Below the pieces are notes generated by a model. That model saw nothing but the letters and a program-made list of their open reading frames with translations. It made no database searches and was not told the origin of the DNA. From IMG/VR virus record IMGVR_UViG_3300002461_000119, positions 1 to 41,690 of that record: a DNA stretch of 41,690 bases, one strand, 5' to 3'. The translations under genes and the position numbers were made by a program. This document shows positions 10,664-10,785 of the stretch, piece by piece (position 1 is the stretch's first letter; the number at the start of each line of letters is the position of its first letter). This DNA comes from a virus.

Positions 10664-10692
10664 TTTACATAGGTAAAAATTAATGCTATAAA
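10664..10692 (+). promoter_or_regulatory. sigma70-type promoter of the candidate sRNA
   Basis: TTTACA (10664..10669), 17-nt spacer, TATAAA (10687..10692), within an AT-rich block. Confidence 0.45.
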
Positions 10693-10698
10693 TAATTA

Positions 10699-10785
10699 TC
10701 AGGTTTCATGGGATCAACTTGATCCTGCGTTTTCCTCCCTGATCACCTTGGCGGTAGTGAGAAATCACTGCCGCCTTTTTTCTTT
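10699..10785 (+). ncRNA. candidate ~85-nt small RNA
   Basis: Bounded by promoter 10664..10692 and intrinsic terminator 10750..10785. Internal hairpin GGATCA-ACT-TGATCC (10711..10725). Single-stranded CCTCC (10734..10738). No ORF longer than 4 codons. Confidence 0.35.
10750..10785 (+). terminator. Rho-independent terminator
   Basis: 11-bp stem GGCGGTAGTGA/TCACTGCCGCC (one G-U pair), GAAA loop, then TTTTTTCTTT. Confidence 0.7.

Follow-up and report, generated by a model that had tools for sequence, protein, structure and literature searches.

Genome context and the candidate small-RNA unit

The window, by which we mean the whole stretch of DNA analyzed here, is a complete virus record of 41,690 bp. 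The early genes of this phage occupy the minus strand to the left of its sole long non-coding stretch, and to the right of that stretch come the gene of the small terminase, recognized by a PHROG match, and then the gene of the large terminase (TerL). Within the non-coding stretch lies a short unit with a promoter and an intrinsic terminator of its own (Table 1).

Table 1. Features of the control region and of the candidate small-RNA unit (window coordinates)
Feature	Position	Strand	Remarks
Sole long non-coding stretch	10236-11245		contains the small-RNA unit; divergent early and structural arms on either side
Early-arm proximal promoter-like site	10296-10269	minus	
-35 box TTTACA	10664-10669	+	5/6 match to consensus
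Extended -10 element (TGc) with -10 hexamer	10684..10692	+	
-10 box TATAAA	10687-10692	+	lacks the usual final T
Predicted small RNA, ~83 nt	10699..10781	+	start placed at the 7th base after the -10 box, +/- 3 nt
5' hairpin	10709..10727	+	7-8 bp stem, 3-nt loop; core 10711-10725, extended by the folding tool
Predicted single-stranded stretch	10730-10747	+	includes CCUCCC (10734-10739)
Putative pyrimidine seed, 10-mer UUUCCUCCCU	10731..10740	+	core CCUCCC (10734-10739); exposure predicted
Single-stranded linker, seed to terminator	10741..10749	+	
Intrinsic terminator	10750..10785	+	11-bp stem with 7 G-C pairs and GAAA loop (10750-10775), U6 followed by CUUU
Conserved DNA block	10795..10810	+	directly 3' of the terminator; synteny anchor present in the window, L013, L040, L041, and L042
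Weak promoter-like site	11001-10974	minus	9/12 match
Second near-consensus promoter	11022..11050	+	3' of the small-RNA terminator, ahead of the small terminase gene; context, outside the RNA

The promoter, spacer, hairpin, C-rich stretch, and terminator had all been proposed in a preliminary description of this DNA, and each of them is present in the sequence where that description had placed it. The same holds for its statement that nothing coding lies upstream on this strand: no credible ORF was found on the plus strand upstream of the unit, and a TTG ORF of 43 aa at 10748-10879 is devoid of a ribosome-binding site (RBS). The -35 and -10 boxes are separated by 17 nt, the final three bases of this spacer, TGc, forming an extended -10 element. 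The promoter was omitted by a scan for consensus promoters, because the sixth base of its -10 box is A, not T.

Transcription from this promoter would produce an RNA with a predicted 3' end within the U-tract of the terminator, and the estimated length of the RNA follows from these two ends. The folding energy of the predicted 83-nt RNA is -33.2 kcal/mol, compared with a mean of -18.2 kcal/mol for shuffled sequences (z = -4.65; none of 200 shuffles is as stable), and the genome as a whole contains only about three terminators this strong. The C-rich stretch between the two hairpins, which the preliminary description considered to be exposed, has a predicted mean unpaired probability of 0.64.

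The 10-mer of the putative seed occurs once in the genome. A 12-mer that combines the seed core with the next six bases (10734-10745) has one further exact copy, at 1940-1951 on the minus strand inside an exonuclease-like early gene (1081-2193), with about 0.005 such repeats expected. This copy is in the sense orientation of the small RNA and so offers it no pairing target.

Conservation of the unit in related phages

Six other units from five distinct lineages, with TerL proteins 59-64% identical to that of the window, preserve the arrangement from promoter to terminator in the same place and orientation. One of them was found on a metagenome contig, L013 (TerL 59%), where a non-coding stretch of about 1.1 kb is syntenic; the unit there consists of a consensus promoter, an RNA of about 137 nt containing CUCCUCCC, and a strong terminator. 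An alignment-based scan of IMG/VR gave L038/L039, L040, L041, L042, and L043, whose TerL proteins are 62-64% identical. All units share the strand of TerL and precede this gene by 0.9-1.9 kb, and five of the seven, the window included, are directly upstream of one conserved DNA block. These seven homologous units amount to six distinct, independent sequences, and it is on these that the claim of conservation rests; the protein collection contains further TerL relatives, P0001-P0012 (63-93% identical), of which P0001-P0005 (76-93%) are the closest.

The promoters of the units align in register, with TTGAC(A/T) in five of seven, a spacer of 17 nt, and a TATA-type hexamer that is preceded by TGc in six. 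All seven predicted RNAs, 83-137 nt long, fold better than their shuffles (z from -2.2 to -6.8). The terminator stems of L040, L041, and L042 contain several pairs changed on both sides, and a single broken pair is seen, at the base of the stem. The remaining RNA sequence is nearly unalignable across the units, and MAFFT placed the C-rich motif inconsistently.

The core CCUCCC is nevertheless kept in five of the seven units (P ~1e-9 if the units are independent), with six copies in the 809 nt of units against 0.06 expected for the same loci. The L038 RNA has more than one copy; L042 has the variant UCCCC only, in a hairpin loop; and no C-rich motif was found in the L041 unit. Four relatives retain 7-9 of the ten bases of UUUCCUCCCU. 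According to the predicted folds, the motif is situated in a linker in the window and L043 and in a hairpin loop in L013 and L040; it is single-stranded or in a loop in most units, with mean unpaired probabilities ranging from 0.35 to 0.84. The seed has thus survived a divergence that erased other sequence, which argues that selection acts on it, and a conserved motif with predicted exposure is what is usually seen when a small-RNA seed is under selection.

Conservation of the promoter-terminator pair in relatives had been set beforehand as a test of the proposal that this locus is an independent small-RNA gene, and the proposal passed it, the exposed C-rich motif being kept as well. It could still be argued that promoter-like hexamers, a hairpin, and a terminator came together by chance, and promoter-like sites in this region are indeed no commoner than in shuffled sequences (seven found, 6.3 expected). 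This explanation is hardly credible, however, given that both the unit and the motif hold their position and orientation in the six other units of five lineages. It is very likely, judging from these comparisons, that the small-RNA gene is real and conserved.

Outside this group, nothing similar was detected at the DNA level in public phage genomes, and the unit is absent from TerL relatives at 44-50% identity. Three additional searches returned candidates that were rejected. The exact 19-nt seed region had a sole match in IMG/VR, on contig L012 (63% GC), which was ascribed to chance because on the other strand of this unrelated contig it reads as an ordinary RBS with its start codon. The conserved C-rich block was found exactly at 15 loci, all of them coding or high-GC chance matches except for one already known relative. 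Similarly, the block 3' of the terminator gave 119 loci, and the terminator filter was passed only by contigs already found.

Several short units of other kinds were also observed. Consensus-promoter, short-RNA, and terminator units without the C-rich motif lie upstream of the terminase genes in L059 (~880-1010) and in L086 and L112 (~1560-1665), all with TerL of about 45% identity; the terminator loop of L059 carries a purine run resembling a Shine-Dalgarno sequence. On the minus strand of L051 (TerL 51%), positions 760-690, which belong to the 3'-UTR of a gene encoding 74 aa, contain CCUCCC followed by a strong terminator, an element that may be either a 3'-UTR-derived small RNA or a product of chance.

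Position of the unit in the control region

Located where the structural arm begins, the unit reads toward both terminase genes, small and large, and combines a strong promoter with a strong terminator behind it. These features would also suit a regulated promoter-proximal terminator, a checkpoint similar to lambda PR'-tR' at which a phage factor allows read-through and the short RNA is a by-product, and so would the existence of motif-less promoter-terminator units in more distant relatives. We consider this scheme unlikely. The conserved near-consensus promoter at 11022-11050, with counterparts in L013, L040, and L041, is situated between the terminator and the first structural gene, and read-through is therefore not needed. 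The lambdoid PR'-tR' 6S transcript depends on Q antitermination, whereas no Q family was found in the window: six-frame searches with PF06530 and PF03589 gave no match at E up to 1, although an unrelated antiterminator could serve instead. Finally, a by-product RNA would not be expected to keep an exposed motif of 6-8 nt amid divergence.

A second lambdoid RNA, OOP, is 77 nt long, has its own promoter and terminator, and is antisense to cII. The OOP and 6S transcripts resemble the window RNA in that they are small, independently initiated and terminated, encoded in a control region, and made by the host polymerase (for the window RNA, presumably so). However, OOP overlaps cII in antisense, and there is no such overlapping gene at the window unit. 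A cis-antisense action could alternatively be directed against a long leftward leader that starts to the right of the unit, where a weak minus-strand promoter-like site is present (Table 1). This seems quite improbable, as the early arm has a proximal promoter-like site of its own and perfect antisense pairing would not explain the selective conservation of one short motif.

The control region contains further repeated elements. A 15-bp dyad occurs in 49 copies in the genome, compared with 0.05 expected, for instance at 10261, 10498, 10865, 11178, and 11211. At equivalent places of the control region the relatives have a dyad that differs by a compensated swap at the sixth base of each arm; it is found in L013 (2170-2190, 2478-2496, 2746-2764, and 3100-3118) and in L040 (2610-2626, 2842-2858, and 3146-3162). 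The dyad site and its binder appear to co-evolve between phages. Three GATC sites fall within 35 nt of the small-RNA gene (10711-10745), and GATC is somewhat enriched genome-wide (211 sites versus 163 expected).

On the strand of the small-RNA unit, C-rich islands lie on either side of it, at 10567-10620 and 11100-11122. Of these, the second is identical at 19 of 19 positions in L013 (2991-3009), and part of it is kept in L041 and L043. The islands are candidate packaging or origin elements. Together with the conserved block at 10795-10810, and with the location of the unit in the only long non-coding region, they raise the question whether transcription could act in cis at the DNA level, by activating or priming a replication origin or a packaging site, so that the sequence of the RNA would be secondary. 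Such a role is improbable for three reasons: the strong terminator 83 nt downstream limits transcriptional activation, C-rich RNA forms stable R-loops poorly, and a conserved exposed motif within the RNA fits a role at the RNA level.

Predicted pairing and candidate targets

If the small RNA acts in trans by base pairing, its C-rich seed could be directed to ribosome-binding sites. The preliminary description ascribed AAGGAG or GGAGG sites to most genes of the phage, which was half right: AGGA and AGGAG dominate, and GGAGG is found at three of about 56 starts. For the 56 initiation regions of the phage the mean predicted pairing energy of the seed was -9.15 kcal/mol, compared with -8.88 +/- 0.75 kcal/mol for shuffled seeds of the same composition, and no difference in predicted pairing was observed between early-arm and late-arm genes (p = 0.2). 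The best phage sites are 9-bp matches at three early genes, with starts at 10235, 8035, and 5894; no conserved site complementary to the seed was found in the relatives' loci. The earlier suggestion that the RNA switches early to late expression by occluding RBSs of the phage itself is thus unsupported by computation: the seed does no better than shuffled seeds, and predicted pairing shows no difference between the two arms.

Host shut-off, or action on host targets, is possible. The seed was kept while the genes and RBSs of these phages diverged, which makes host transcripts more probable targets than the phage mRNAs at large. We also considered the minus-strand complement of the core, GGGAGG, as an RBS in its own right; this was rejected, because no unit has a start codon at workable spacing or a conserved minus-strand ORF.

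The C-rich stretch could act not by pairing with mRNAs but as a decoy that imitates the 3' tail of 16S rRNA or another pyrimidine-rich ligand and titrates Hfq, S1, bS21, or a nuclease acting on the 16S tail. The linker of the window RNA contains, beside CCUCC, an 8-mer of the near-universal 16S 3' tail, a match equaled by 0.6% of shuffles, and L013 has a 7-mer in common with this tail; the U-tail of the terminator is a feature frequently bound by Hfq. On the other hand, the linker 8-mer has seven copies genome-wide against 1.3 expected, four of the six other units match the 16S tail no better than shuffles, and conservation is limited to the CCUCCC core. These matches argue weakly for mimicry of the 16S tail, and we regard a decoy function as rather unlikely.

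Resemblance to alphaR8 and other small RNAs with C-rich seeds

Three traits define the alphaR8 small RNAs (PMC12559287): they have a Rho-independent terminator, they contain the 10-mer UUUCCUCCCU in an internal single-stranded position, and this 10-mer is preceded by a weak hairpin. Members of this family (MmgR of Sinorhizobium meliloti and SisA-D of Caulobacter; RF00519, 'suhB') are about 80 nt long and have the same layout as the window RNA, in which all three traits are present: the exact 10-mer (10731-10740), the hairpin (10709-10727), and an 11-bp terminator with U6. In agreement with this, RF00519 was the best of 4227 Rfam families for a pre-specified segment of 251 nt, with 22.6 bits (E = 0.01) against an Rfam gathering threshold of 41 bits. 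The L038 unit scored 19.9 bits with this model, also below 41; L040, L042, and L043 gave no match to it, the all-family Rfam scans of L013 and L041 contained no RF00519 match, and no family reached its own threshold in the Rfam scans of the units. Membership in alphaR8 is not established, because the model threshold was failed and the other relatives had no match.

There are additional differences from alphaR8. The RNA described here is phage-encoded, its relatives have longer RNAs (93-137 nt), some of which place the motif in a hairpin loop, and for the phage RNA a G-rich sponge partner is not known. Convergence on a sequence complementary to a strong Shine-Dalgarno element may account for the resemblance. 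It seems doubtful to us that the phage RNA mimics the function of a host small RNA of the alphaR8 type or originated as a captured copy of one. If it were so, early delivery of the 10-mer would take over a post-transcriptional regulon of carbon use and starvation in the host, or would soak up its G-rich sponge RNA, and the virus would hijack a small-RNA network of the host via seed mimicry.

No consistent host taxon emerged from searches with TerL, the polymerase, the portal region, and the endolysin, from genome and tRNA scans, or from a cluster look-up. Among the relatives of the endolysin are proteins of cyanophages (50-55% identity) as well as of Rhodobacterales phages (45-50%), and the polymerase matches are distant and mixed. 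The tRNA scan detected no tRNA genes in the genome, the cyanobacterial HIP1 palindrome (GCGATCGC) is not enriched in it, and the genome scan for the host returned doubtful contigs of metagenome-assembled genomes only.

Small RNAs in which a C-rich seed pairs with Shine-Dalgarno regions are known in several groups of bacteria, namely RsaE/RoxS in Bacillota and the CcsR/'cuckoo' RNAs and AbcR in Alphaproteobacteria. Like the phage RNA, they have exposed C/U-rich motifs complementary to G-rich RBSs, and a single RNA sometimes carries the motif repeatedly, as L038 does. Unlike it, they are bacterial, and no match to these families by sequence or by model was found at E up to 10.

Among phages, both a small RNA of lambda (bioRxiv 10.1101/2024.10.31.621285) and prophage small RNAs (PMC12197685) are base-pairing RNAs presumed to act on host mRNAs, as may also be the case here. 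The latter source mentions pairing with RBSs only for FnrS/AsxR and for the c4 RNA of P1/P7. The trans-acting small RNAs described in phages come mainly from temperate coliphages and prophages and have specific seeds, in which they differ from the window RNA.

Proposed mode of action and implications

The above analysis suggests, on balance, that the locus encodes a trans-acting small RNA as a gene of its own, in a clade of uncultured phages with genomes of about 40 kb. The seed of this RNA would pair with mRNAs and block the initiation of translation. Host RNA polymerase with the primary sigma factor would start at the extended -10 promoter and stop about 83 nt further on, at the strong intrinsic terminator, and the RNA would probably be both early and abundant. 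The predicted architecture consists of a closed 5' hairpin, an exposed seed YCCUCCCW (UUUCCUCCCU in the window), and a 3' terminator hairpin with a U-tail. U-tail terminators commonly bind Hfq, and this one is consistent with Hfq association. In a limited number of mRNAs the seed would find G-rich Shine-Dalgarno-like sequences (GGGAGG type) to pair with, and by analogy with the alphaR8, RsaE/RoxS, and CcsR-type RNAs such pairing may block translation initiation. To the extent that sequence comparison can tell, the small RNA is probably a phage-made regulator of translation with a seed of anti-Shine-Dalgarno type and with host targets.

To our knowledge, few small RNAs of non-temperate phages have been described, and almost none has been defined by its conservation in a phage clade. 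The candidate is compact and well delimited, with a seed of 6-8 nt, and one RNA of 83 nt with one seed would offer a simple system for testing if it represses translation at host RBSs or mimics a host small-RNA family. In either case, a small phage would be reprogramming the translation of its host by means of RNA only.
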